Origin: an uncultured bacterium
GTDB lineage: Bacteria > Planctomycetota > UBA1135 > GCA-002686595
DNA: 64,000 nt
NCBI GenBank assembly: GCA_943787795.1
Contig: CALSNU010000004.1
Span: 256,001 to 320,000, forward strand
Direction of reading: 5' to 3'
Part shown: one piece after another, positions 24,660 through 39,395 of the stretch
Layout of the letters: each line of letters opens with the position of its first letter
Position numbering within the stretch: the stretch's first letter is position 1
The notes under the pieces: generated by a model
What the model saw: only the letters and a program-made list of their open reading frames with translations
Databases searched by the model: none
What the model was told of the DNA's origin: nothing
Translations under genes and position numbers: made by a program

Positions 24660-25433
24660 ATGGAGCCTCCCGACCCCGTCGCCTTCGTGTTCGGCGCCAC
24701 CGGCTATGTGGGCCAGGCGGTCGTGGAGGTCGCTGCGCGAACCGCGGACGTCGCCCGCGTCATTGCCCACGCTCGGCCGGACTCCCCACGCGCGGACGAA
24801 CTGACGGCGCTGGCGAGCGACCGGATCATGGTCGACCGCACCCCGCTCGAGGTCGGCTCGCTCAGCGCGACGCTGACGGCCTCCAACCCCAGCCACGTCT
24901 TCCTGTGCCACGGGACGACCGCTCACAGGGCGCGACAAGAGGGGATTCCAGCGCCCTACGAGGCCGTCGATCTCGGCCTGACGCAGCTCATCCTGGAAGC
25001 TGTTGACGCGATGGCAACGCCACCCCGGATCGTCTATCTCTCCGCGATCGGAGCCTCGCCTCGCGCTCGCGGCGCCTACCTGAGCGCCCGCTGGCGAGCC
25101 GAGGAGGCGGTGCGGGCGAGCGGGCTGCCGTTCACCATCTGCAGGGCCCCGCTCCTGGGCGGCCCGGACCGGACGGAGTCGAGACCCCTCGAGACGGTGG
25201 CGCGAACTGTCGCAGATCCGCTCCTCGCTGCCCTCGGCGCCGTTGGCCTCACGCGCCTCCGGGACCGGCTCTCCTCGATGGACGCCACCGAGGCCGCCGA
25301 GGGCATGGTCCGCAGCGCGTTCCACTACATGACCATCAATCGCGTGGTCGAGAGTGACGAACTCCGCCGGGTTGGGGTCTATGAGAGGGAGCGGTGGGCG
25401 CCCGAGTCTCGCCGCGATACCCCACGGCACTGA
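24660..25433 (+). CDS. NAD(P)H-binding SDR-like/epimerase family protein
   Basis: FGATGYVG Rossmann motif; YLSAIGA, YL...W.AEE. Confidence 0.8.
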   Translation: MEPPDPVAFVFGATGYVGQAVVEVAARTADVARVIAHARPDSPRADELTALASDRIMVDRTPLEVGSLSATLTASNPSHVFLCHGTTAHRARQEGIPAPYEAVDLGLTQLILEAVDAMATPPRIVYLSAIGASPRARGAYLSARWRAEEAVRASGLPFTICRAPLLGGPDRTESRPLETVARTVADPLLAALGAVGLTRLRDRLSSMDATEAAEGMVRSAFHYMTINRVVESDELRRVGVYERERWAPESRRDTPRH

Positions 25434-25480
25434 ATCCCACGGTGCTGGGCCCAACGGCCCTGAGCCGCCCTCCCCTCTCC

Positions 25481-26665
25481 ATGTCCCGCTTTCACCCGAC
25501 CCGCCCGCAAGTAGAGCCGGAGAGAGGCGCCCATACCCTGGACGTGGTCGAGGGCACCGTCGTCGGGGTGCACGGAACGGACGTGTTCGTCGAGCTCGGC
25601 CCGAGGAAGCAAGGGGTGATCTCCCTGGCGTCATTCGATGACCCGCCCAGGGTCGGGGAGGTCCATCAGTTCACCCTCCGCGGTCGCGAGGACGAGCTCT
25701 GGATGCTCAATCTCCACAACCAGCGGACCCTCTCGGAGTGGGAGGAGCTGGAGCCCGGGAGCCTCACCACGGCGAGGGTGCTCACCAAGACCCACGACGG
25801 CTTCCAGCTGAAGATCGGTCCGGTCTACGCCTACATGCCCTACTCGCTCTCCGGCGTGCGCAAGCCCCGGGACCGCGGTGCACTCCTGGGTCGCTCCATC
25901 GTCGTCGAGGTCCTCGAGGTGGACGCCGACAAGCAGCGTGCGATCGTGTCACGCAAGGCGGTCCTCAAGCTCCAGAAGGCCGGCGCCGCCCCGGGCGCCG
26001 TGGTCCCAGGACAGACCGTCCAGGGGCGGGTGACCCGGATCGAACCGTATGGGGTCTTCGTCCGCCTCGGGCGAGGGCGAGAGGGCCTGTGCCATATCAC
26101 CAACTTGTCCGCGGACAGGGTCGAGCACCCCGGGGATGTGGTCCGCATTGGCGAGGTCGTGGATGCCCGGGTCCTCTACGTCCGAGCCGGAGGGAGACGC
26201 ATCGGGCTCGGCTTCAAGCAGCTCCTCGAGAGCCCATGGGTTCGACTGGAACGGGAGCACTGGGAAGGGCAGATCGTCTCCGTGGGGATCGTACGGGTGG
26301 GGCGATTCGGCGCCGTCGCCAGGTTGTTCGCCGGCGCAGAGGGCATCCTGCCCATGTCGGAGTGCGGCGATCGTTGCCCCCCAGCAGGCCTCTCCATTGG
26401 AGACCAGCTCTCGGCCCGGGTCCTCGAGATCGACCCTGAAGAACAGCGCCTTGCATTCTCCCTCCTGCACGCCAATGGCCAGCCGATCGCTCCGGATGAA
26501 GCCGAGTGCATCGCCGACTTCGGCACCATCCGGAGCCTGCCGGCGCTGAAGGACCTCCTGCCGGAGGCCGGCGCCGCCAGCGAGCATGGCGGAGGCGCCT
26601 CGACGAACCTCGGCTCCGTGCTACGCAGGGCGCTCGACGGCAAGTCCGACGGGCACCGGGGCTAG
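25481..26665 (+). CDS. S1 RNA-binding domain protein (RpsA-like paralog, ~4 S1 domains)
   Basis: Repeated S1 signatures, e.g. GQTVQGRVTRIEPYGVFV...EGLCHI, RIGLGFKQLLESPW. Confidence 0.8.
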   Translation: MSRFHPTRPQVEPERGAHTLDVVEGTVVGVHGTDVFVELGPRKQGVISLASFDDPPRVGEVHQFTLRGREDELWMLNLHNQRTLSEWEELEPGSLTTARVLTKTHDGFQLKIGPVYAYMPYSLSGVRKPRDRGALLGRSIVVEVLEVDADKQRAIVSRKAVLKLQKAGAAPGAVVPGQTVQGRVTRIEPYGVFVRLGRGREGLCHITNLSADRVEHPGDVVRIGEVVDARVLYVRAGGRRIGLGFKQLLESPWVRLEREHWEGQIVSVGIVRVGRFGAVARLFAGAEGILPMSECGDRCPPAGLSIGDQLSARVLEIDPEEQRLAFSLLHANGQPIAPDEAECIADFGTIRSLPALKDLLPEAGAASEHGGGASTNLGSVLRRALDGKSDGHRG

Positions 26666-26942
26666 CCAGGCGCTGCACCTGCGCGTATTCCCGTAAGGCG
26701 CGGGCTAAACACGCGCCTGGAATCGGCCCCCGCAGCCCCTGGGAGAGCCTGGCGCCCACCTAGGAAATTGTTTCCGAGCCGCGGCGGCCCCGAGTCCCGC
26801 TGTTAGGCCCACATCGGATCGGTTCCTGCCCGACCTCGTCCCGATCACGGACGCGAGGCTCACGGGCCACAGTGTGAGGAACACGGATGCCGATGACGGA
26901 CTGGCCGCGGGGTTCCGCGGCATCCGGCAACACCACGCCTCC

Positions 26943-29900
26943 ATGCTGCCAATGAAACGCCGCCTCCTTCGAAACGCACCTGCACCCGCCGCCTCCAGGA
27001 GAGGCACCGCACTCTTTGCCGTCATCCCCATCGCGATCCTGATGATGTCCGTGATGGTGGCCTTCGTGGGCACCGCCGTCGAGACGAGCAAGAGCAGCAT
27101 CACCGATCTCGATACGTTCCGGGCTCGTGCAGCGGCCAAGAACACCGCCACGCTCGCGATTGCGGAGCTCTGGGCGGACTTCAACAAGTCGAGCGGCGAG
27201 GCCTCGGGGGTCGCCAGCTTCAAGACGTTCCTCGATCAACAAGGCATGGTCACGCCAGAGCTGTCTAGCTCAGAGCCGATCAAGCGGGACTTCAAGGAGA
27301 CGCTCGGACTGAAGAAGGACAAAGAGGGCTCTGAGGCGCTGCAGAACGTCACCATCGACCGCGCCGAGATGTTCCGGGTGGACACGGCCGAGGCCACGAG
27401 CATCGTGGTCGAGGTCGATGCGACAGCCAACCGCCGCCCGGGAGACAAGACCTCCAAGGAGCGCCACGGTTCCATACGCGAGACCTTCACCATCTCGAGC
27501 CCGTCTTCAGGCGGCGTCGACTTTGGCATTCTCGCGGAGGAGGCGTCCTGCCTCTTCTGCCACACGACCATCGACAGCGCAGAGCGCGTCTACAACTCCG
27601 ACAGCAGGCTCACAGGTAGCTTCGCCCCAGTCAAGGCGGGCTTCCTCGGCAACCTCGGACTCCGGACTGACGCCGCGAGCGAAGTCGCGGGGATGATCTT
27701 GTCGCGCGGATCCGTCCACGACGTCGCCGGTGGCGCGATCTCCGACTGGAGCGCTTACGACGTCGAGGCCCTCAGCGCCGGCGCGAACGGCGAGCTCGAG
27801 GTGATCCACGAGAACGCTCTCGGCGACCCGACCCTCGGGTCTCTTCGCCCGTTCAGCGAGGGAGTCTCCGACGCCAACCTCTACGCCGAGATCACGCCGG
27901 GGATGGCCAACGCACCGGAGATGCCCGAGGAAATCCCGGCGGTGATCGCCGATGACGGCGGGTTTGACTATGCCACGGGCGAAGCACGCCCGGAGTTTGG
28001 CGGTAACCGGCTGGTCGACGATACCGAGTTCGCCGTCAAGGCGGCCACCGCCAACGGGTCCCTCTCGGGAGGGAAGATCTCGGTCATCGGACAGGGCAGC
28101 ACGATCGCCACGCCGGCCGAGCAGGCTGCGATGCGAGCAGGGCTTGAGACCTCTCTCAGTGCCTCCACCGCCGGGCATGTCTATCTCCGAGGCACCGAGC
28201 AGGACCCGATCCTCCTGGACGGCTCCATCGCTATCGACGGAGACGTGATCATCAGCGGTGTCGTCAAGGGGACCGGCAACGTGACGGCGCGAGGCAACGT
28301 CTTCATCGCCTCCGACCTGACCTATGCCGACCAGCAGAGCGGCACCTCCCGATCATTCGGTCGCGCAGCCGATGGAACGGAGAACCTGCTGACGCTCGCT
28401 GCCGGGGGCAACATCGTCGTCGGCGATTACTTCCGATCCAACGATTCGACCGAGGACCAGCCCGGGATCTCTGGGGACTCCACAGGGGACTTCAATGCCA
28501 CCCTGCAGGAGATCTCGATCTTCAACCGCTCCGAGTGGTCGAAGACGCAGCCTCAGGTTCCTGGGCCGGCCTCCGAGTGGACCCAGATCGGCACCGAATC
28601 GGTGGAGTACCCCGAGGTGATCACCGAGACCTACTACGAGTGGGTCACGGACGACCAGTCCAGCGCCGAGATCCCGACCGATCAGCTGAACCGTACCGCC
28701 GATCCGCTTCAGACCCCCTTCGTGAAGGAAGCTCAGGCGGCATCGTTCACCACGAGCGCCAACTCGCCCCCGGGAGTCACGAAGAAGAAGAAGAAGAAGA
28801 AGTCGGCCAAGAGCAAGAAGTCCGGCAAGAGCAAGAAGTCCGGCAAGAGCAAGAAGTCCGACAAGAGCAAGAAGAGCAAGAAGTCAGGCAAGAGCAAGAA
28901 GTCCGCCAAGAGCAAAAAGTCCGGCAAGTCGAATAAGAGCGCCAAGGCTGCTGCTGAGAAGGCTGCCGCTGAGAAGGCTGCCGCTGAGAAGGCCGCCGCT
29001 GAGAAGGCTGCTGCTGAGAAAGCTGCTGCTGAGAAGGCCGCCGCTGAGAAGGCTGCTGCTGAGAAGGCCGCCGCTGAGAAGGCTGCTGCTGAGAAGGCTG
29101 CCGCTGAGAAGGCTGCTGCTGAGAAGGCTGCTGCTGAGAAGGCTGCTGCTGAGAAGGCTGCCGCTGAGAAGGCTGCCGCTGAGAAGGCTGCCGCTGAGAA
29201 GGCTGCGGCTGAGAAGGCCGCCGCTGAGAAGGCTGCCGCTGAGAAAGCTGCTGCTGAGAAGGCTGCTGCTGAGAGGGCTGCCGCTGAGAAAGCTGCGGCT
29301 GAGCGCGCTGCTGCTGAGCAACTTGCTGCCGAGAGGGCCGCTGCTGAGAAGGTCGCCTTCGAGAGAGCCCTGGAAGAAAAGGCGGCTGCAGCCAAGAAGT
29401 CTTCCAAGAGCGACAAGTCCGACAAGTCCGACAAGTCCGACAAGAGCAAGAAGAGCAAGAAGAGCAAGAAGAGCAAGAAGAGCGAAAAGTCCGAGAAGAG
29501 CGAAAAGTCCGAGAAGAGCGAAAAGTCCGAGAAGAGCAAGAAGAGCGGCAAGTCCGACAAGAGCGACAAGTCCGACAAGTCCGACAAGTCCGACAAGGTG
29601 ACGGGTCGCTGGGTCCAGCGAACTCGTGAAATCACGACGGGCCGAATGCTGACCCGAGAAGAGCCGGTCTTCGGATGGAGCAACCTCATCTCGAACCCTC
29701 GCTACGACGCGGCTTATCGGCCTCGCTACTACAACGTGGGCGACAGCCAGGCGATCCCGATCCACAACAAGGGAGGGCACTTCGACCCGGCTTCTGGTGC
29801 ATGGGTCGGCCTTCCTCCCAGCACCAACAGCTGGGACACGGATCTACTCACGATCGCAGATCCTTCCGATCCCACGGACACGATCCTGTTCGACTCCGAT

Positions 29901-30278
29901 GGGACGTCGATCGCAAGTACGCTGCCGATCAACCCGTCGAATTCCTGGATCACACCGGAGCTGCTCCGTGCGACCATCTTGGATGAGCTGGACCCGAAGC
30001 GATCCGAGCGCGATCAGACGTTCAAGATCGACGCCACCCTGCACACGACCAACTCGATCCTCGGCTTCGTGCCTGGCTACTCGCCGACGTACAACACGGA
30101 CTCCCGCTACACGGACGGGCGAATGAGGATCAACGGATCGATCATCGCCACGCACGTCGGCCTTCACGCCACCGAAGGTATGACGATCAACTACGACGGG
30201 CGAGCATCAAGGAGCATGAGCGTCGGCAGCGAGGGTATCCAGATCCGGCGGTACTTCAGCGCTCCCACGATTCGCTGA
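26943..30278 (+). CDS. Large PilX/GspK-like prepilin-type protein with low-complexity helical insert
   Basis: RRG|TALFAVIPIAILMMSVMVAF class III signal-like N-terminus; CLFCH motif; GxIxIxG beta-solenoid-like region; C-terminal INYDGR; start may be 26952. Confidence 0.65.
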   Translation: MLPMKRRLLRNAPAPAASRRGTALFAVIPIAILMMSVMVAFVGTAVETSKSSITDLDTFRARAAAKNTATLAIAELWADFNKSSGEASGVASFKTFLDQQGMVTPELSSSEPIKRDFKETLGLKKDKEGSEALQNVTIDRAEMFRVDTAEATSIVVEVDATANRRPGDKTSKERHGSIRETFTISSPSSGGVDFGILAEEASCLFCHTTIDSAERVYNSDSRLTGSFAPVKAGFLGNLGLRTDAASEVAGMILSRGSVHDVAGGAISDWSAYDVEALSAGANGELEVIHENALGDPTLGSLRPFSEGVSDANLYAEITPGMANAPEMPEEIPAVIADDGGFDYATGEARPEFGGNRLVDDTEFAVKAATANGSLSGGKISVIGQGSTIATPAEQAAMRAGLETSLSASTAGHVYLRGTEQDPILLDGSIAIDGDVIISGVVKGTGNVTARGNVFIASDLTYADQQSGTSRSFGRAADGTENLLTLAAGGNIVVGDYFRSNDSTEDQPGISGDSTGDFNATLQEISIFNRSEWSKTQPQVPGPASEWTQIGTESVEYPEVITETYYEWVTDDQSSAEIPTDQLNRTADPLQTPFVKEAQAASFTTSANSPPGVTKKKKKKKSAKSKKSGKSKKSGKSKKSDKSKKSKKSGKSKKSAKSKKSGKSNKSAKAAAEKAAAEKAAAEKAAAEKAAAEKAAAEKAAAEKAAAEKAAAEKAAAEKAAAEKAAAEKAAAEKAAAEKAAAEKAAAEKAAAEKAAAEKAAAEKAAAEKAAAEKAAAERAAAEKAAAERAAAEQLAAERAAAEKVAFERALEEKAAAAKKSSKSDKSDKSDKSDKSKKSKKSKKSKKSEKSEKSEKSEKSEKSEKSKKSGKSDKSDKSDKSDKSDKVTGRWVQRTREITTGRMLTREEPVFGWSNLISNPRYDAAYRPRYYNVGDSQAIPIHNKGGHFDPASGAWVGLPPSTNSWDTDLLTIADPSDPTDTILFDSDGTSIASTLPINPSNSWITPELLRATILDELDPKRSERDQTFKIDATLHTTNSILGFVPGYSPTYNTDSRYTDGRMRINGSIIATHVGLHATEGMTINYDGRASRSMSVGSEGIQIRRYFSAPTIR
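28782..29597 (+). repeat. Coding repeats: KSx tract, 15-bp (AAAEK) array at 28947-29381, second KSx tract
   Basis: 21 consecutive gcNgcNgctgagaaR units followed by ~8 in-register, mostly degenerate pentads; flanking 9-bp aagagc/aagtcc units. Confidence 0.95.
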
Positions 30279-30374: not shown

Positions 30375-31874
30375 TCAACGCAGGGCCCGGACCCCTTCAC
30401 GCCCAAAGTAGGGCACGACAACACCCGATTCGAGGGTGAGGCTGAGGGGTCGATACTCCCGGTCAAAGCGCGGGTCGGCGACGATATCTGCCTCCCACGG
30501 GTTCACGTCCACGGCGCCCGTGGTGGGCTGAATGACCCCGTTCCCCAGGATCAGATAATCCGGCCTCTGGTCGAGGACCCAGCGACCGTCGTGCCTGTGG
30601 TGCCCCTTGACCCGGACTCTGCTGAGGTCCGGAGGAGCCGAGGCAAAGGCCCCGTGCGTCAGACCGAGGACATCAACGACCTCGAGCCCCGAGGCCCAGC
30701 CGAAGGCCCCGATCGGCGAGAGCGCGACGGTGCCGCTCTGCGGCGCGAGCTCGCCGAACGCCTCCCCCATCTGCAGCCAATGCTGCTCGAAGAACCGATG
30801 CTCCCCCACCGCCTGCGGACGTGCAGTCAAACCGCCGCAGGTGAACATGGTGGAGACGGCGACAGCCGCCGCAATCCTCGTTCGCCTGTCGCTCAACCCT
30901 GAGAGAGCCGCAGCCGCGCCGACAGCTCCCACTCCGACGAAGGGTACGAGGAACCTCGAGTACACCATCCAGTCCCCGCCCACAGCGAGGACCGCGATCA
31001 GCGCTGAGCCAGCGGCCAGCGAGAGCGCTCGAGCGTCCGGCGCTCCCCGCGGAACCAGGATCGCAATGAGGAGCATCAAGGCGAGCGCGCCCTCGCCGAG
31101 AGAGCGCAGGAGGTAGCGGGCTCCGTACTCGAGCTCGGCGCTGATCGGGAGCGCCTTGAGCCCGAGCGCGTGGGGCGTGAAGGCACCGAAGACCTGATAC
31201 CTCAGGCCTCCGAGGAGCAGCAAGGTCATGAGCGGTGCGGCAAGCCAACCGACCTCCGCCGGTCGCAGCGGCCGCGCCGGCCGCATCGTGAGGACACAGG
31301 CTGCCCAGGGGATCAGGGCCTCCGCGCGGAAGGAGCACGCCACCGCGAACGCCAGCCCTGGCACGACGGCGCTTCCCCCGCGGCCAAGAGCCCAACGGGA
31401 CCAGTGGTGGAAGCCCAGGGCGATCGCCGCCGCCAGAGGGACCGTTCCGAGGCCAGCCATGGTGTGCCAGGCGACCGCAGGGGACAGGGCTACCCACCAG
31501 GGCGCAAGCTCCGCCAGGACGCTGGAGTCCCGCGAGCGCGCCCAGCGACCGACGACCAGGACGAGCAGACCGAAGCTCAGGGCACCGACCAGGGGGGTCC
31601 AGATGGCGGGGGTTATCCCCACCAGGACGCCGAAGGCGACCACGAGGAACCACCCTGGGCTCGTCACACCGTCGACAGGCACCTCGCCGGGATTGAAGAC
31701 AGGTCCCAGCCCCTCAACCCAGTGGCTCGCGTAGCGATAGACAATGTAGTCATCATCCACCGGCCCAACACCCAGCAGCGTGAGCACGTGAAGGAGCGCC
31801 ACGAGCACGGGCGCCCACTCGCGCAACGCGAGGCGGACTCGTGGGGTCCCTTCAACGTCGACGTGATCATTCAT
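30375..31874 (-). CDS. Multi-TM membrane protein, GT-C/arabinofuranosyltransferase-like
   Basis: DDDYIVYRYA...G.GPVFNPGE..DG.TSP, GGDWM..SRF, DVLGLT; start uncertain (31874 or 31934). Confidence 0.65.
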   Translation of the reverse strand: MNDHVDVEGTPRVRLALREWAPVLVALLHVLTLLGVGPVDDDYIVYRYASHWVEGLGPVFNPGEVPVDGVTSPGWFLVVAFGVLVGITPAIWTPLVGALSFGLLVLVVGRWARSRDSSVLAELAPWWVALSPAVAWHTMAGLGTVPLAAAIALGFHHWSRWALGRGGSAVVPGLAFAVACSFRAEALIPWAACVLTMRPARPLRPAEVGWLAAPLMTLLLLGGLRYQVFGAFTPHALGLKALPISAELEYGARYLLRSLGEGALALMLLIAILVPRGAPDARALSLAAGSALIAVLAVGGDWMVYSRFLVPFVGVGAVGAAAALSGLSDRRTRIAAAVAVSTMFTCGGLTARPQAVGEHRFFEQHWLQMGEAFGELAPQSGTVALSPIGAFGWASGLEVVDVLGLTHGAFASAPPDLSRVRVKGHHRHDGRWVLDQRPDYLILGNGVIQPTTGAVDVNPWEADIVADPRFDREYRPLSLTLESGVVVPYFGREGVRALR

Positions 31875-31981
31875 TGAACCGGATCCGGCCAACGATCCCT
31901 CGCTCCGGATCGTAGCCGCTAGAGCGCCCGTCATCCTCCCGATCTACCACGAGAGGGGCTAGGCTGTGCGCTCACCGTCCG

Positions 31982-34000
31982 TTGAAGATCCTGCTCGCCT
32001 CCTCGCCTCACGCCGACACGTTCGGGTACTCGATGCCGCCCCCCGGTCTCCTGAGGCTCGGGGGAGCGCTTCGGGACGCCAACCACGACGTGGCCCTCGA
32101 GGACCTTGCCTTCCGGCTGGGAAGCGGAGAGCTCCCCTCAGGGGACGGCCTCCCCGCCGCAGCCGCGGCGCTCCTGGCGAGCCGCGGACGTCCAGACGTG
32201 GTCGGCCTGTCGGTCATGGGCGCCACCTTGCCCGTCGCCCTGCTGATCGCTGAGCAGCTGAAGGAGGCCTGGCCAAAGGTCCCGATCGTGCTCGGCGGCC
32301 CAGGAGTCCACGGGGTCGACGTGGGCCTCCTCGAGCGCTTCCCGGCGATCGATCTCGTGGCCCGAGGCGAGGGTGAGGTCACCGTGGTCGAGCTCTGCGA
32401 AGCGCTCACCAGCGGCCTGGAGGCCGCCGGCGAGGTCGACGGCATCACTCACCGGACCGCTGGCGAAGTCCGCCGCACTCCAGACCGAGCCATGCTCCGA
32501 GACCTGGCGGCGCTGCCCGCCTACGCCTGGGACCTGCTGCCCCCCATCGCCAGGTACAAGGAGATCACGGGCAGCGCCGACGGCCTGGTGCCCATCGACT
32601 CCGGTCGCGGCTGCGCGTACGACTGTTCGTTTTGCTCGATCGGACGCACCTGGCGCCGGCGATCCCGCCCGCTCCCGGCCGCCCGCCTCGTCGACGAGAT
32701 CGCTTCCCTGCGGGGCATCCCCGGAGCGCGCCGCGCCTACCTCTGCCATGACCTCTTCGGCGCCGACCGAGGCCACGCCATGGCGCTCTGCGCCGGGCTT
32801 CAGGAGCGCGCGATTCAGGTGCCCTGGGAGGTTCGGGCGCGCGCTGATCACCTCGATGCCGAGCTCCTCTTGAGCATGGGCAAGGCCGGCTGTGACCGCG
32901 TGCTCCTCGGGATCGAATCCGCCTCCGCCGCGGTCCGGGCCGCCAACCAGAAGGGCATGCGCGATGATGTCGACCTCCTGCAGGTGGTCGACGATTGCGC
33001 CGCGGCCGGGGTGACCCCCATCCTGTCCCTGATCCTCGGCCTGCCGGGCGAGGGCGACGGGGAGCTGAACGAGTCGCTCGAGTTCTGCGCCTCGGCTGCG
33101 CTGCGAGCGGGGGTCAACCTCTCCCTCCATCTCGTGAATCCGCAGCCCGGCTGCGCCCTCGGAGAGGAGTTCGGAGCCGCGTCAAGTCCAGTTCCAGGCG
33201 TACCCCCAGACATGGCGCTGGGAGCCGGAGAGACCGCCGCAGAGCGAGCCCTGATTCATGGGCATCCGGACATCTTCTCGACCTGGTCCCTCCTGCCCTA
33301 TCCCGAGGAGAAGCTCGCGGAGCTCATGTTCCTGAGCGGGGAGTTCGGCGAGACGCTGATGCGCTACCCCCGAGCCGTTGGTGCGCTGGCCGCCGCCACG
33401 GGGCTCTCGATTCTCACGCTCGCGCGTGAACTCCGCGCGGACGGCCGGACCTTCGAGACGTTCGCTCGTCAGCGCGTGGCCAGGTCAGACGGGCGCCCGA
33501 TCCTCGACGCCCTCCTGCGCTGGGAGAACGCCTTGGTTCGCATCGCCGCCCGGGGGCCGCGACCGGCCCGGGATCATCGCTGGACCCTGGGCGCCGAGCT
33601 GATATCGACCTCGCTGGACCTCGGCGCCGCCGTCGAGACCCTCATCAGCCGGCGCCGCGGCGCGCCGCCTGGCCCCGCAGTCGAACCAGAGGCCAGCCCG
33701 TTGCTCCTCAGTCAAGAAGAGATGACCTTCGCAGTGGTCGCTCCCACCCCGTCCCCTGGGCGCCTCGCCGGCGTCCGGACGGTGCGACTGTCCAAGGGCT
33801 CTGCCAAGCTGGCCCAGGCTATGGAGCGCGCGCGCACCGACGAGGAGCACGCGCGCATCACTGCGGCCCTCGAGGCCCCCGGCGTCCGAGGCGCCGCCGC
33901 AGGGCTGATCGAGTCCGGCGTCCTCATCCCGCCCAGAGGCGCGGGCACCTCCACCCCGAGCTCCCACGCTCGGCAGAACTCACCGACCACGGCGCCATGA
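31982..34000 (+). CDS. B12-binding radical SAM protein 1 (class B methyltransferase-like) with C-terminal extension
   Basis: TTG start; PPPGLLRL, DVVGLS, IVLGGP, RGEGE; RGCAYDCSFC (Cx3Cx2C); LGIESA. Confidence 0.9.
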   Translation: MKILLASSPHADTFGYSMPPPGLLRLGGALRDANHDVALEDLAFRLGSGELPSGDGLPAAAAALLASRGRPDVVGLSVMGATLPVALLIAEQLKEAWPKVPIVLGGPGVHGVDVGLLERFPAIDLVARGEGEVTVVELCEALTSGLEAAGEVDGITHRTAGEVRRTPDRAMLRDLAALPAYAWDLLPPIARYKEITGSADGLVPIDSGRGCAYDCSFCSIGRTWRRRSRPLPAARLVDEIASLRGIPGARRAYLCHDLFGADRGHAMALCAGLQERAIQVPWEVRARADHLDAELLLSMGKAGCDRVLLGIESASAAVRAANQKGMRDDVDLLQVVDDCAAAGVTPILSLILGLPGEGDGELNESLEFCASAALRAGVNLSLHLVNPQPGCALGEEFGAASSPVPGVPPDMALGAGETAAERALIHGHPDIFSTWSLLPYPEEKLAELMFLSGEFGETLMRYPRAVGALAAATGLSILTLARELRADGRTFETFARQRVARSDGRPILDALLRWENALVRIAARGPRPARDHRWTLGAELISTSLDLGAAVETLISRRRGAPPGPAVEPEASPLLLSQEEMTFAVVAPTPSPGRLAGVRTVRLSKGSAKLAQAMERARTDEEHARITAALEAPGVRGAAAGLIESGVLIPPRGAGTSTPSSHARQNSPTTAP

Positions 34001-36300
34001 TCAAGCTCCCCAGCAACGACTTCCCCGTCACCCTCGCGTTCCCTCCGCAAGGACACTGGACCCAACCTCACCTGGCGCTCCCCTGCCTGAAGGCGTGGCT
34101 GCAGGCGAGCGGCTACGGGGATGTTCAGCAGATGGACCTCTCCGTCGAGGCCTTCGACCACTTCCTCACTGCGGAGTCATTGACGCGAGCCGCGGCCAAG
34201 GTCGAGCAGCGACTCCCCCTGGATCGCTTCGAAGGAGACCGCCTCCCCCTCGGCCAGATGCGAGCCTGGCGTGCCGCGGCCGAGAGCGCGGCCTCTGCGG
34301 CGTCGCTCATCAGCCGCGTCGAGTCCGCGAAGGCCATCCTGAGGGGGCAGGACCACCCAGTGGAGGGCGACCGTGGCTTCTGGGACCCCGACCGCTATGT
34401 CCCCGCCGTTCGGACCCTCTACCACGGGCTTCGGCTGGTCTCTGCGGCCCACTACCCGAGCGAGCTCACCCCCCACAACTTCACGATGTCCTACTCGAAC
34501 GACTCGAGTGAGGAGGTCCTGGCGGCCACTCTGGACGAGGAGCAGAACCCCTTCATCGAGTTCTACCGTGAGGAGGTGATGCCGCGGCTCCTCGAGCGTA
34601 AGCCGCGGCTGCTCGGGCTCTCGGTCCTCTACGGCAGCCAGCTCATTCCGGCGCTGACCCTCGCGCGGATGGTGAAGGCCGCGCTCCCCGACTGCCACAT
34701 CACCATGGGCGGCGGCTTCCTCGCTTACATCGGGGACAAGGTCATGTCAGCCCCGGGTATGGCCGAGTGCTTTGACTCGATGGTGTTCCATGAGGGGGAA
34801 CGACCCCTCCTGATGCTCTGCGAGGCGCTCCGGCTCGGCGAGCCCCTCCACGACGTGGGGAGCCTCTCCTGGTGGGACCGCGCAGACCCGCAGCACCCAG
34901 TGTCCGTCAAGAACATGGCCGCGCACCCGATCAAGCTGGACGACGCCCCGGCCCCGGATCTCGACGGGCTGCCGATGGACAAGTACTTCTCGCCAGAGGT
35001 GGTCATCCCCTACGACGTGAACCGGGGCTGCTATTACGGCGAGTGCACGTTCTGCACCCTCCCGACGGTCATCGGCCCGGGATACCGCACACGCTCCTCG
35101 GAGACGATCGCGCGCCACGTGGTCGAGCTGCGCGACCGCTACGAGTCGACCCACTTCAACTTCATCACGGACTGCATGCCCCCCGGGATGATTAAGGAGC
35201 TGCCCGAGCGGTTGATCGAGGCGGAGGCTGGCATCACCTGGTGGGCGGACGCCCGCTTCGAGCCCAAGGCCTATGACGCAGATGGCGCGAGGCGGCTCTT
35301 TGAGTCAGGGTGCCGCAAGCTCCTGTTCGGCTTTGAATCCGCGACCAAGCGGATCCTCAAGATGATGATGAAGGGCCAGAGCCTGAAGTCCGTCGTCGAG
35401 GTCGCCCGGAACTGCACCGAGGCGAACATCAGCGTGACGTTCTACGCGATGGTGGGCTTCCCCACGGAGACCCGCGAGGAGGCGCGCGCGACGCTGGAGT
35501 TCATCGAGCAGCACGCCGACATCATCCGCGAGGTTTCCTTGCAGACCTTCCACATCGACGAGGTGGCGAAGACCTACAAGGAGCCCGAGCAGTTCGGGAT
35601 CCGCGTCCTCGACGCCCCAGGGGACCTCGCCCTCTACCACGACTATGTGGCCGACGTCGGGATGACCCAGGAGGAGGCCGCGGAGATGTTCGAGGAGATG
35701 ATGGCGTCCTTCCGGCGTAACCTCGCGATCTTCTCCGGTGACAACATCTTCTACTTCATGCAGAAGAGTCACTACTTCCTCCACCTCGCCGCGGGTGAGA
35801 CCCCCCAGGGGTTCTCCGGGCGCTGCGCTGACCGCACGGCCGCTAGAGCGGAGCGGGTGGCTGACCCCGAGCTGACCGTGAGCCAGGGACTCGTCAGCGT
35901 CCCCCTCAGCTTCAGCCACTCGGACGCGGTGCGCACCCTCGGAGACCCCCTCGCCCGCGCCGCCCGTCCGGACTTCCTGACCGGGCGTTACGTCCGGGAC
36001 GCGGACCGGGTCGCCGAGGAGACGCTCCCTCCCCTCGATCCAAAGGAGCGCTTCCTGCTCTATGACCCCGAGAACGGCGAGTTCGTTGAGCTCCGCGATG
36101 GCGGGGTCCGCGTGCTCTCCGCCCTGCGCGAGCACGGTACCCTCGGGGCGCTGGTAGCGGCTCAGCGGCGCGCCGGCGCCTCGGCTGCAGCCATCGATAG
36201 ACTCGAGCAGTTCGCCACCGAACTCCACCGGCTCGGAGTGCTCCGCGCCGCGGCCCCTCTTTCCCCCAACGCGCCTGTCCTCGCCACCGCGCGGGGTTGA
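33997..36300 (+). CDS. B12-binding radical SAM protein 2 with RRE/PqqD-like C-terminus
   Basis: ATGA overlap with the upstream gene; PHLALPCL, LLGLSV, ITMGGG, HEGE; RGCYYGECTFC (Cx4Cx2C); FGFES, MVGFPTET. Confidence 0.9.
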   Translation: MIKLPSNDFPVTLAFPPQGHWTQPHLALPCLKAWLQASGYGDVQQMDLSVEAFDHFLTAESLTRAAAKVEQRLPLDRFEGDRLPLGQMRAWRAAAESAASAASLISRVESAKAILRGQDHPVEGDRGFWDPDRYVPAVRTLYHGLRLVSAAHYPSELTPHNFTMSYSNDSSEEVLAATLDEEQNPFIEFYREEVMPRLLERKPRLLGLSVLYGSQLIPALTLARMVKAALPDCHITMGGGFLAYIGDKVMSAPGMAECFDSMVFHEGERPLLMLCEALRLGEPLHDVGSLSWWDRADPQHPVSVKNMAAHPIKLDDAPAPDLDGLPMDKYFSPEVVIPYDVNRGCYYGECTFCTLPTVIGPGYRTRSSETIARHVVELRDRYESTHFNFITDCMPPGMIKELPERLIEAEAGITWWADARFEPKAYDADGARRLFESGCRKLLFGFESATKRILKMMMKGQSLKSVVEVARNCTEANISVTFYAMVGFPTETREEARATLEFIEQHADIIREVSLQTFHIDEVAKTYKEPEQFGIRVLDAPGDLALYHDYVADVGMTQEEAAEMFEEMMASFRRNLAIFSGDNIFYFMQKSHYFLHLAAGETPQGFSGRCADRTAARAERVADPELTVSQGLVSVPLSFSHSDAVRTLGDPLARAARPDFLTGRYVRDADRVAEETLPPLDPKERFLLYDPENGEFVELRDGGVRVLSALREHGTLGALVAAQRRAGASAAAIDRLEQFATELHRLGVLRAAAPLSPNAPVLATARG

Positions 36301-36314
36301 CCCAAGGACCAGCC

Positions 36315-36491
36315 ATGAATCAGAACAAGGATCAGCGAGACGACCTCGAGAACGAGGAGGCCCCGGAGAAGAGCGCCGAGGCGAGCCAGGCCGCAGGCGG
36401 CGAAGCCCTCGACCTCGAGGGGCTTGACCTCACGGTCGAGACCGTCGAAGAGCGGATCAGTCCGAGCGAGACCAACGTCTTCGACAAGTGA
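36315..36491 (+). CDS. 58-aa acidic peptide, putative RiPP precursor/scaffold
   Basis: aagga RBS at 36304-36308; MNQNKDQ...LDLEGLDLTVETVEERISPSETNVFDK; begins 15 bp after the radical SAM 2 stop; coding-like codon use. Confidence 0.8.
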   Translation: MNQNKDQRDDLENEEAPEKSAEASQAAGGEALDLEGLDLTVETVEERISPSETNVFDK

Positions 36492-36593: not shown

Positions 36594-37874
36594 CTAGACC
36601 GTGACGCCGAGGTGCGTCGCCGTGTGCCCGGGGAAGAGCGGTCCGGCGTCCGGGCTCCCGAGCCGTCGCTCGGCCACCTCGGCCAACACGTCCCGGTAGT
36701 CGATGGTGACGTCGAGGTCCCCCTCGTTGAGACTCGACGGGGCGAGCCCAGGCCATTGGGTCATGACCCGGCCGCCGGCGATCCCGTCCCCCATGAGGAA
36801 CATCGCGTTTCCGAACCCGTGGTCGCAGCCGTCGCTGAGGTTCGGCGCGATCCGGCGCCCGAACTCCGAGTGCGCGACGAGGGTGTACCTGATCCCTGAG
36901 TTCCTAAGGTCCAGATAGAAGGCCTCGAGGGAGCGGGCGAAGGTGTCGAGCATGCCGGCGTAGGTGCCGCTCAACGGTCCCATCTGGACGTGATGGTCCC
37001 AGCCGTCGATGTCGACGACGCAGCACTCGAGGTCGAGGCCCGCCTTGAGCATGGTCGCGACGGCCCGGAGGCCGCCGCCGAAGGGGCCGCCGGGGTAGAC
37101 CGCGCCGTTCGACGGGGTGTAGCCGAAGAACTGAACTCCGCCCACCTGGTCGAGGGCATCGAGCGCGCTGACGGCCGCGGGGCCGAGGGGAGCCGGCTGG
37201 GGCCCGTACATGTCGGCCAGGACCTGCCGCCTGTCGGTCGCGGTGGCGGCCTCCCCGGGGAACGAGAAGGTCGGCGGGACGGCGATCGGGATCGACCCCG
37301 GCGCACCGGTGAGCGTCCATGGCAGCAGCGCCGAGAGCGAGAGCGCCCGGACCGTCCCGCTACCCAGGGGCTGAATCGTATCGAGGTGCCGCGAGACCCA
37401 GCCCTCGGAGAGCGGGAGCGCGCTCCCCGCCGGCGTCGCCGTCTCCCAACGCCGCATGCCGTCGAAGTGCGAGAGCGTATGAACCGGTGCGCCCGCGGCG
37501 TGGACCACCAGGAGCTTGCCGTCGGCGTAAGGGGTGTGGAGCGGCGCGGCCGAGGGCGAGAGACAGAAGGTCCCGTCCAGGTCCACCGAGCCGTTCCCAG
37601 ACGAGGGGCCAGGGATCGCAAGCGGACCGCGCGACGAAGCGTAGTCCGGGTCGCCGTAGGGGACAACGGCGCTGAGGCCGTCCATGCCTCCACGGAGGAA
37701 CACGTTGACCAGGACGTCTCGCTGCACTCCGCCGCCGCTCCCGCGGTTGGCGCTGAAGGCGATCCGGGGCATCGCCGAGGACACAGCGGCGCCCGCCGCC
37801 GCTGTCCTCAGGAAGCCTCGCCTGGAGAGGTTGGCGTACTCGGAGCACGCCGCACGTTCACTTCGTCGTGTCAT
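36594..37874 (-). CDS. DUF1501 family Tat-exported protein
   Basis: SRRGFL; FLRGGMDGL, SHFDG, GWDHH, SEFGRR, GCDHG. Confidence 0.9.
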   Translation of the reverse strand: MTRRSERAACSEYANLSRRGFLRTAAAGAAVSSAMPRIAFSANRGSGGGVQRDVLVNVFLRGGMDGLSAVVPYGDPDYASSRGPLAIPGPSSGNGSVDLDGTFCLSPSAAPLHTPYADGKLLVVHAAGAPVHTLSHFDGMRRWETATPAGSALPLSEGWVSRHLDTIQPLGSGTVRALSLSALLPWTLTGAPGSIPIAVPPTFSFPGEAATATDRRQVLADMYGPQPAPLGPAAVSALDALDQVGGVQFFGYTPSNGAVYPGGPFGGGLRAVATMLKAGLDLECCVVDIDGWDHHVQMGPLSGTYAGMLDTFARSLEAFYLDLRNSGIRYTLVAHSEFGRRIAPNLSDGCDHGFGNAMFLMGDGIAGGRVMTQWPGLAPSSLNEGDLDVTIDYRDVLAEVAERRLGSPDAGPLFPGHTATHLGVTV

Positions 37875-37889
37875 GGTGTCGTCACCGGA

Positions 37890-39395
37890 TCAATAGAACT
37901 GATAGCCCGGGCTCGCGGCGAGGAGCGCGGCGGCATCCCTGAGGACCTGGTCCGTGAAGGGCCGGGCCCCGATGTACTGCTGGACTCGCGCGACCTCGGC
38001 CTCGGGAATCAACCCGCCCGCCATCTCTGCCGCGAGCCGCTGGGCCAGGGACGGGTTCGGCGCGGATCCGCGCAGGGCCGTCAGAGCCGAGGTGGAGATC
38101 GTCAGCCCTGGAAGGCCGCCGTTCAGGAGGTTGGTGGCGTACGCCCAGCGACCGTTCACGTCGCTCCCCCACGCCAGCAGCGTGTCCGGATATCCGTCCG
38201 GCGTCCCCCAGACATAGGGCCGCTGGCCGACGAGCTCGAAGATCCGCGCGGCGCCGAGGAAGTCGTCCGACGTGACGGCGCTCAGCTGCCGCAGGAGCCC
38301 TATACCGAAGTGGAAGGGCCGCTTCAGCTTGAGCCGCGTCGTCGCGGCACAGAGCCGGAGGACCTCGTCCGAGAGGGCCTCGCGGACGATCTCCCGCAGG
38401 TCGCCGTTCGTCGCCTGCCAGACGGCGATCACCCGGTCCACCGCCGCCTGCGGGGGCTCGATGCCCGACAGCCAGCCCACGAGCTTGCGGGAGACGTAGT
38501 CAAGCGTCTTGGGGTGCACCGCCAGCATGTGGAGCATGTCCAGGCCATCCTGCACGCCCCCCCCGCCCGGGAGCTGGACCCCGAGCACGGTCTTGGGGCC
38601 GAAGTCGTGGTCAGCGGCGTCGAAGTAGAAGTCGCCCGGGTTGGCCTCGTGCCAGTACTCGTACCGCCAGCCGGTGAAGCAGCGGCTGATCTCCTTCACG
38701 TCATCCTCGGTGTACGGCCCATCCACCCCCAGGGTGTGAAGCTCCATCACCTCTCGGCCGAAGTTCTCGTTGGCCGCTCCCACGACGTTCACGTCGCCAT
38801 CGAGATAGGCCGACATGGCCGGGCTCTTGGCCACGGAGACGAGGAGGTCCTCGAAGCGCCCGAGGGCGTGCTGCCGGATGGTGTCCCGGTCGTAGGCCGT
38901 GAAGAAGAGTCGGCCTCGAATCGTCTCGAGCTGGTCGACGTTGAAGTGGTCGTGCCAGAACTCGACGACGCGCTCGAGGAGCTGACGTTCGCTGAGTACC
39001 GAGCGCGCCACGCAGACCTGCTGCAGGTGCTCACACGGCACGAGCGCGGAGTTGGCGAAGTTGGCGTGCAGGTCCGGCAGCGACATCGAGACGCTGGGAA
39101 ACCGCGCGACAAAGGCGTCCGCCACCGGGTCCGGAATCGACTGGGGGTTGAGCTGCGCATCCAGCCAGGCGGCGCGGCCCGCGCTCCGGATGTCCAGAAG
39201 GGTGGCCCGCGTGAAGCCCTGGGTCGCCCGGTGCGCGAGGGCCAGATCGAGGTCCTGTCGGCCAGCGGCCCCGGGCGCGGCAGCCTGGGGTCCGACGGGC
39301 GCGGTGGCGCTCGAGGATGCGGGCAACGTCGTGGGCACGCCGAGGATCGAGCGGCGCGAGCGCGACCTTCGGATGGACGGCCGTTGAGATTGCAT
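37890..39395 (-). CDS. DUF1800 family protein
   Basis: EFWHDHF, PAM..YLD, NENFGREVMELHTLG, FTGW, LKRP. Confidence 0.9.
   Translation of the reverse strand: MQSQRPSIRRSRSRRSILGVPTTLPASSSATAPVGPQAAAPGAAGRQDLDLALAHRATQGFTRATLLDIRSAGRAAWLDAQLNPQSIPDPVADAFVARFPSVSMSLPDLHANFANSALVPCEHLQQVCVARSVLSERQLLERVVEFWHDHFNVDQLETIRGRLFFTAYDRDTIRQHALGRFEDLLVSVAKSPAMSAYLDGDVNVVGAANENFGREVMELHTLGVDGPYTEDDVKEISRCFTGWRYEYWHEANPGDFYFDAADHDFGPKTVLGVQLPGGGGVQDGLDMLHMLAVHPKTLDYVSRKLVGWLSGIEPPQAAVDRVIAVWQATNGDLREIVREALSDEVLRLCAATTRLKLKRPFHFGIGLLRQLSAVTSDDFLGAARIFELVGQRPYVWGTPDGYPDTLLAWGSDVNGRWAYATNLLNGGLPGLTISTSALTALRGSAPNPSLAQRLAAEMAGGLIPEAEVARVQQYIGARPFTDQVLRDAAALLAASPGYQFY

Follow-up and report, generated by a model that had tools for sequence, protein, structure and literature searches.

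A conserved Asp-Lys-ending peptide encoded beside predicted cobalamin-dependent radical SAM enzymes in Planctomycetota

The window analysed here is a 64,000-nucleotide stretch of contig CALSNU010000004.1, from the 4.7-Mb, 85% complete genome of an uncultured planctomycete (G000). A compact cassette of three co-oriented genes, encoding two radical SAM enzymes (E1 and E2) and a short peptide, lies in its middle part and has the following features.

31982..34000, + strand: E1, 672 aa with a TTG start; B12-binding radical SAM enzyme with CxxxCxxC at residues 211-218
within 31982..34000, + strand: C-terminus of E1; TglI-like module in the structure model, with a predicted RRE at its end
33997..36300, + strand: E2, 767 aa; B12-binding radical SAM enzyme with CxxxxCxxC at residues 345-353
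about residues 685-750 of E2, + strand: C-terminus of E2; predicted PqqD/RRE-like domain
36301..36314, + strand: spacer of 14 bp with an AGGA ribosome-binding site, as seen in the sequence
36315..36491, + strand: precursor-like peptide gene, 58 aa, ending ISPSETNVFDK
36408..36458, + strand: leader box, about L32-I48, delimited by conservation; predicted RRE-docking strand that would serve in docking
36468..36491, + strand: core tail E52-K58 and stop codon; D57-K58 is common to every peptide type found

The layout given in a preliminary description is present in the sequence: E1 and E2 overlap by ATGA, a 14-bp gap with AGGA precedes the peptide gene, and opposite-strand genes (30375-31934 and 36594-37874) flank the cassette on both sides. 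No protease or exporter adjoins the cassette within the window, as had also been stated. Pattern searches found neither a sigma-70 promoter nor an intrinsic terminator at the cassette, and no second copy of the peptide was found in G000. Contigs from RNA libraries (four runs, one study) are scattered over the cassette and its neighbours alike; such contigs cannot show transcription.

Some neighbouring genes of the window were also recorded. The product of 25394-26665 (+) is a 423-aa S1-repeat protein, which scores under the cut-offs for ribosomal protein S1 and is probably a paralogue. The 1134-aa protein of 26874-30278 (+) carries a long (AAAEK)n tract between Lys/Ser repeats, and its relatives in the genus are shorter, at about 850 aa. 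Divergent from E1 is a gene (30375-31934, -) for a 519-aa multi-pass membrane protein that has no Pfam or NCBIfam match and, we assume, resembles a glycosyltransferase. A DUF1800 gene and a Tat-signal DUF1501 gene (36594-39395, -) converge on the peptide gene, and this pair adjoins it in close relatives only.

Both enzymes had been described as having an N-terminal B12-binding domain and an Fe-S motif, and Pfam matches and invariant cysteines agree with this. Pfam Radical_SAM scored above its cut-off in E1 and E2. The B12-binding match is 62.8 bits in E1 (cut-off 32.1) and 31.7 bits in E2, 0.4 bit below the cut-off (E 1.5e-7). The Fe-S cysteines, C211-x3-C215-x2-C218 in E1 and C345-x4-C350-x2-C353 in E2, the latter with non-canonical spacing, are invariant in the orthologue alignments. 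Structure models of the two enzymes have pLDDT values of 91 and 93, and the best fold matches of both are TsrM, TokK, CysS, MgmA and OxsB; the E2 search covered the protein up to its last 100 residues. These fold matches also take in OxsB and AprD4, which do not methylate. Judged by domains, the three cysteines and fold, E1 and E2 are class B (cobalamin-dependent) radical SAM enzymes. They are 27% identical to each other over 372 residues, and neither has a Pfam or NCBIfam match to a SPASM domain. The B12-dependent metH is present in the host genome. In a plasmid collection, no match covered 80% of E1 or E2. The cultured planctomycete Saltatorellus ferox Poly30 (L049) carries the same E1/E2/peptide triad, and its E2 homologue is 75% identical to that of the window.

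Neither enzyme falls into a named NCBIfam family. The best match of E1 is the ApyD family NF050148, at 197 bits against a cut-off of 750. The likeness of E1 to ApyD is weak: its orthologues score 177-206 bits with this model, and 162 bits are reached even by a B12 radical SAM enzyme from the same genome that is unrelated to it. The best match of E2 is TIGR03975, which we take to cover RiPP C-methyltransferases of the bottromycin and polytheonamide type; E2 reaches 118 bits and E1 94, against a cut-off of 282, and a bottromycin-type identity was rejected for this reason. The cassette also differs from the bottromycin type in having no YcaO or follower peptide at the locus, a C-terminal core and a near-core distribution.

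The preliminary description proposed that E2 ends in the three-strand, three-helix pattern of an RRE and that E1 ends similarly. For E2 this is upheld: Pfam PqqD matches the E2 of the window weakly (E 8e-5) and the tails (last 75 residues) of 12 of 45 orthologues (best E 5.5e-7), and its modelled C-terminus has three strands followed by three helices. The E2 tail is the only PqqD match in G000. The E1 claim is supported too, more weakly by sequence (PqqD in 1 of 45 orthologue tails). Residues 442-652 of the E1 model align to residues 57-269 of chain C of 8hci (TglHI) with Z 12.2, rmsd 3.6 and 185 residues aligned. We take chain C to be TglI, going by its length, and an RRE has been described in TglI at residues 171-269 (PMC9016710). 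A Z of 12 in a largely helical region is moderate evidence for an RRE in the E1 model. The E1 and E2 tails match one another by profile (probability 89), and when their two profiles were run against PDB sequences, only designed-repeat noise came up. RRE-type folds are predicted in both enzymes.

The peptide is composed of a variable charged N-terminus, a conserved beta-strand-like box LDLTVETVEERI and the conserved tail ETNVFDK, followed by the stop codon. It contains no Cys and no Tyr, and its C-terminal residue is Lys. Among 57 genome loci chosen by E2, a peptide ending ETNVFDK was found in 55 and E1 in 53, and all six misses (two of the peptide, four of E1) lie at or near contig ends. The peptide thus is conserved beside homologous enzyme pairs. 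It follows E2 by no more than 700 bases in 50 of the 55 loci, and up to 3 kb is inserted in the other five. In a protein search, all of the best 120 of 556 matches had the ETNVFDK ending. The N-terminal part is highly variable among 86 distinct peptide DNAs, and the tail varies synonymously at every position; the position of the stop codon is fixed, with TAG, TGA and TAA all used. Totals of synonymous and non-synonymous changes in the last seven codons are biased by the search pattern, and the unbiased figure is the 55/57 loci. The three genes are coupled and conserved together, and the peptide is a genuine gene. A core of SPSETNVFDK had been proposed; a short C-terminal core is indeed conserved, but it is shorter than this, because S(-10) and S(-8) vary among relatives. 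The peptide profile had no match among PDB sequences, and every peptide match in the ESM Atlas was below 0.9.

Relatives of E2 at 35-41% identity led to sister peptides. Besides the NVFDK tail of the window (type I), tails NIFDK, DVADK and DIADK were found, and the four tail types are spread across six Planctomycetota families. Type II, in part of the host family (f1), in family f2 and in one f9 genome, has one enzyme and a peptide ending FEDVADK; this peptide lies directly behind the E2-like gene in 30 of 30 loci, and the f9 region has the DVADK tail (1/1). Type III, in family f69, has homologues of E1 (34% identity) and E2 (37%) and a peptide ending IPKDRNIFDK. With the E1 homologue as the guide, 11 of 13 regions proved to have this tail, the two without it being cut off at contig ends, and L119 has it as well; the E1 homologue occurs in 14 of 16 f69 genomes. 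Type IV, in families f31 and f99, has one enzyme and a peptide ending YG[RS]EDIADK. The DIADK tail was read in 6/6 f31 and 2/3 f99 regions, the third f99 region being truncated. E1 was found in 0 of 11 f31 and 0 of 8 f99 genomes, and a search with the E1 profile of four genomes (G334, G218, G383 and G234) gave no more than 160 bits, where a true E1 scores 795. Among metagenome loci selected through E1, types I and III alone were seen.

All E2 enzymes with Asp-Lys-tailed peptides form one clade in two quick trees (support 96 and 99). Shorter E2 relatives of families f41 and f93 fall outside it, and no Asp-Lys peptide was seen in the four regions read. These relatives (L349, L350, L351 and L353) are about 585 aa long without the RRE tail, and many f41 genomes have them. 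Genome searches, confined to Planctomycetota apart from one, gave no member that lies securely outside the phylum. Records titled Paracoccaceae and Glaciecola (L037 and L056) have the typical cassette, with enzymes that group among those of planctomycetes, and part of a type I E2 was met on a 1.6-kb contig assigned to an f66 genome (L348); these records and this contig are probably mislabelled or misbinned.

When the tails are aligned at the C-terminus, Lys at position -1 and Asp at -2 occur in every tail type and nothing else is common to all. Every E1-bearing system read has Phe at position -3, where every E1-less one has Ala, and position -4 is taken by V, I, T or M. Position -5 is N or D: it is Asn wherever E1 is present, and in type II it is Asp in 28 of 30 peptides and Asn in the other 2. 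E1 was found only with Phe-containing tails.

Other arrangements were met near these systems. Between the E2-clade enzyme and the DIADK peptide, two genomes of f99 and one of f31 encode a further small peptide, which ends LKEGF[TS]GQER, has an acidic LDL/F box and may be a second substrate (L345:8104-8286, L347:7420-7599 and L341:6428-6565). In f69 loci (L119:14702-16130 and others), the type III peptide is often succeeded by genes for two membrane proteins, one of 278 aa and one of 175 aa with a zinc ribbon. The former matches unnamed Atlas clusters at 0.95-0.97 and a DmsC-like one at 0.89, and no homologue of either protein was found in G000. On the Sinorhizobium meliloti plasmid NC_010865.1 (L172:6821-12047), a pair of radical SAM genes, of which the first has 31% identity to E1, precedes an ORF of 58 aa that lacks annotation; its box, GKIDLEVVELGALQVSP, is similar and its tail, KSKLRVACE, is different, and a gene for an uncharacterised 450-aa protein comes next. 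Locus L091 (G018:C99:12000-31900) has two distant E2-like B12 radical SAM genes, a gene for a small acidic-tailed protein and several co-oriented genes, and is a separate, larger peptide-modification cluster.

The peptide could be a binding partner or activator, while the enzymes modify another molecule such as a protein or lipid. There is a precedent in TmoD, which is active only in complex with its peptide (PMC9303977), and the RRE-less E2 relatives without such a peptide nearby are widespread in f41. However, the strongest conservation in the peptide is at its free C-terminus, past the docking box, and the tail changes along with the enzyme set. We give this explanation very little credence and consider the peptide very probably a substrate of the enzymes.

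The distribution of the system was examined in 301 genomes of the order, 135 of them of the host family. In the family, E1 (the two-enzyme form) is present in 86 genomes and the type II peptide (the one-enzyme form) in 37, so either form is found in 123 of 135 and neither in 12. The two forms were never found together, against about 24 cases expected if they were independent; a Fisher test overstates this exclusivity, because the genomes are kin, and a sign test was set aside as circular, its second trait being the complement by definition. On an RpoB tree (FastTree) the two forms are interleaved, with at least five changes among 26 genomes in a count that left out four genomes. G391 is a type II genome in a genus that is mainly of type I; in it, the two neighbours between which the cassette lies in the sister genome G044 stand adjacent. 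The two forms behave as alternatives for one job, through reciprocal loss or transfer. No E2-clade gene was found in six tested family genomes that have neither form, and since all six are at least 90% complete, the product is not essential. Near-core presence in whole families is unlike the distribution of a sporadic natural-product cluster. Exclusivity together with at least five swaps therefore argues less for a patchily distributed antibiotic than for an interchangeable, near-housekeeping product.

Pheromone systems typically come in mutually exclusive sequence types, and the architecture is of the RiPP type, so the cassette might make a classical RiPP natural product that is exported as an antibiotic or signal. 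Such molecules usually diversify, whereas the tail here is nearly invariant within a type and the system is present in 123/135 family genomes. Exporter, protease, immunity and receptor genes are also not conserved beside the cassette: in the loci compared, with crude gene calls, no protease or exporter recurs, and no immunity or receptor gene is conserved. In bottromycin, adjacent Val and Phe are C-methylated by separate radical SAM enzymes (bioRxiv 10.1101/2025.08.19.671025), a parallel to the V-F of the type I tail. Taken together, an exported antibiotic or signal seems very unlikely to us, and a routine, intracellular peptide-derived product is likely.

Cytochrome c, vWA and nuo genes often follow the peptide, which raised the question of a respiratory link. 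This was rejected: the genes persist in G468, which has no system, and in G559 and G547, which have the one-enzyme type, and because they persist without the cassette their adjacency is not evidence of function. An ASPIC/UnbV gene precedes the one-enzyme cassette; its orthologue is untraceable because each genome has 3 to 5 paralogues at about 40% identity.

We lean towards the reading that the peptide is a substrate of E1 and E2, held by its leader box and C-methylated on its last few residues. The predicted RRE of each enzyme would take the LDLTVETV strand of the peptide as an extra beta-strand. E2 would then methylate the terminal Asp-Lys, because E2 and Asp-Lys alone are common to all versions. 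E1 would add a second methyl group, most likely at the beta-carbon of Phe(-3), since no system with another residue at this position has E1; this step is less secure than that of E2. The link between E1 and Phe comes from two E1-bearing lineages, and Asn(-5), which tracks E1 nearly as well, is the less likely target. A general protease encoded elsewhere is assumed to release a short product, which would stay in the cell and have a routine role, dispensable in that the one- and two-enzyme versions replace each other. Methylation is the fairly probable reaction, while the assignment of Asp-Lys to E2 and of Phe to E1 is tentative, somewhat short of even. The earlier idea of a RiPP-like peptide that would be modified by two B12 enzymes is supported by the conserved peptide-enzyme pairing and the predicted RREs. 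From sequence and models, the cassette appears to be an undescribed RRE-dependent peptide-modification family.

Precedents for both steps exist among known systems. ApyD beta-methylates a Tyr that precedes an Asp (PMC11117315), and TmoD, bound to a carrier peptide that ends V-F-A-X, methylates the final residue X (PMC9303977). Aminopyruvatide pathways (NF050148) have, as is proposed here, an RRE-containing B12 radical SAM enzyme that acts near the peptide C-terminus, on an aromatic residue before Asp. The MNIO enzyme, however, is class-defining for aminopyruvatides (PMC11117315), and here there is no MNIO, P450 or methyltransferase, and there are two B12 enzymes. No MNIO (PF05114) was found at the locus or in G000, which is 85% complete (the control was positive in 1 of 14). 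An aminopyruvatide identity was rejected on the lack of MNIO, the Lys end, the lack of Cys and the E1 score of 197 against 750 bits.

The pearlin carriers TglA and TmoD's substrate offer another comparison and another explanation, in which only the encoded C-terminal Lys is modified and then removed by a carboxypeptidase, so that a modified lysine is the product, and Phe and Asn are recognition elements for E1. Like the present peptide, they have an acidic scaffold with a DL-x-[IV]E-x-[IV]E hydrophobic box and V-F near the end; TglA ends FEEFDLDDIEVIESKVFA plus an added Cys (PMC9016710), an ending similar to the leader box followed by V-F-D-K. The last residue is the target of TmoD and is set free by TmoG (PMC9303977), and the C-terminal module of E1 resembles the TglH partner chain. 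Against this, box and tail stand some seven residues further apart than in TglA, the gene here encodes the last residue, and the peptide-profile search of PDB sequences found no sequence-level match. No PEARL, MNIO, peptidase or transporter is at the locus, and no dedicated peptidase was seen. G000 has no LanB/PEARL match, PF04738 was found in 0 of 6 genomes, and the control genomes were likewise without a match, so reloading of a carrier is not demonstrable. We regard the carrier explanation as distinctly improbable.

Methylation is not certain, because B12 enzymes such as BipD need not methylate: BipD forms a C-C cross-link instead (PMC12707348). A cross-link, decarboxylative cyclisation or rearrangement on Asp-Lys might thus yield a small cofactor comparable to mycofactocin or PQQ. 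The near-core distribution, the constant tail on a variable leader and the non-canonical cysteine spacing of E2 would suit this. The precursors of mycofactocin and PQQ are short and acidic with constant C-terminal residues, and their systems have an RRE and lineage-wide presence, all of which is seen or, for the RRE, predicted here. Their pathways use SPASM-type radical SAM enzymes, a Tyr target and dedicated peptidase and oxidase genes, whereas here there is no SPASM match and no Tyr in the peptide, and neither an oxidase nor a peptidase was seen as a conserved partner. The tails have no redox-prone aromatic residue in common, and the cytochrome and nuo neighbours persist in cassette-less genomes. 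BipD itself, like E1 and E2 a B12 radical SAM enzyme on a ribosomal peptide, couples two o-Tyr residues made by an MNIO; here at most one aromatic residue is available and there is no MNIO, and most characterised RiPP B12 enzymes are methyltransferases (PMC12707348). Such a cofactor made by non-methylating chemistry is unlikely in our view, and methylation of the tail is preferred.

Full-text literature searches, with supplements and most subscription papers outside their scope, found no paper with ETNVFDK or the other tails, and nothing on Saltatorellus with radical SAM or on C-terminal lysine; the string RNIFDK had a match in the nitrogen-fixation literature. Supplementary tables of the RRE-Finder type could list these clusters without description. 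What is new here is that several tail types are united as one Asp-Lys peptide family with a single E2 clade, in mutually exclusive forms. Near-core RiPP-type systems are rare, and the known ones, PQQ and mycofactocin, are cofactors. It is possible, though doubtful, that the present product is a cofactor or modified amino acid derived from Asp-Lys by Lys/Asp C-H chemistry not yet seen in RiPPs, that the one- and two-enzyme versions are interchangeable routes to it, and that the E2 clade is a new clade of B12 radical SAM enzymes.

In conclusion, the system is minimal, with one or two enzymes and a 58-residue peptide. Its versions with and without E1 and its four tail types are natural controls, and the target residues of the enzymes are therefore directly testable. 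New ways to functionalise C-H bonds of Lys, Asp or Phe could come from it, and it points to an undescribed routine metabolite of deep-branching planctomycetes.
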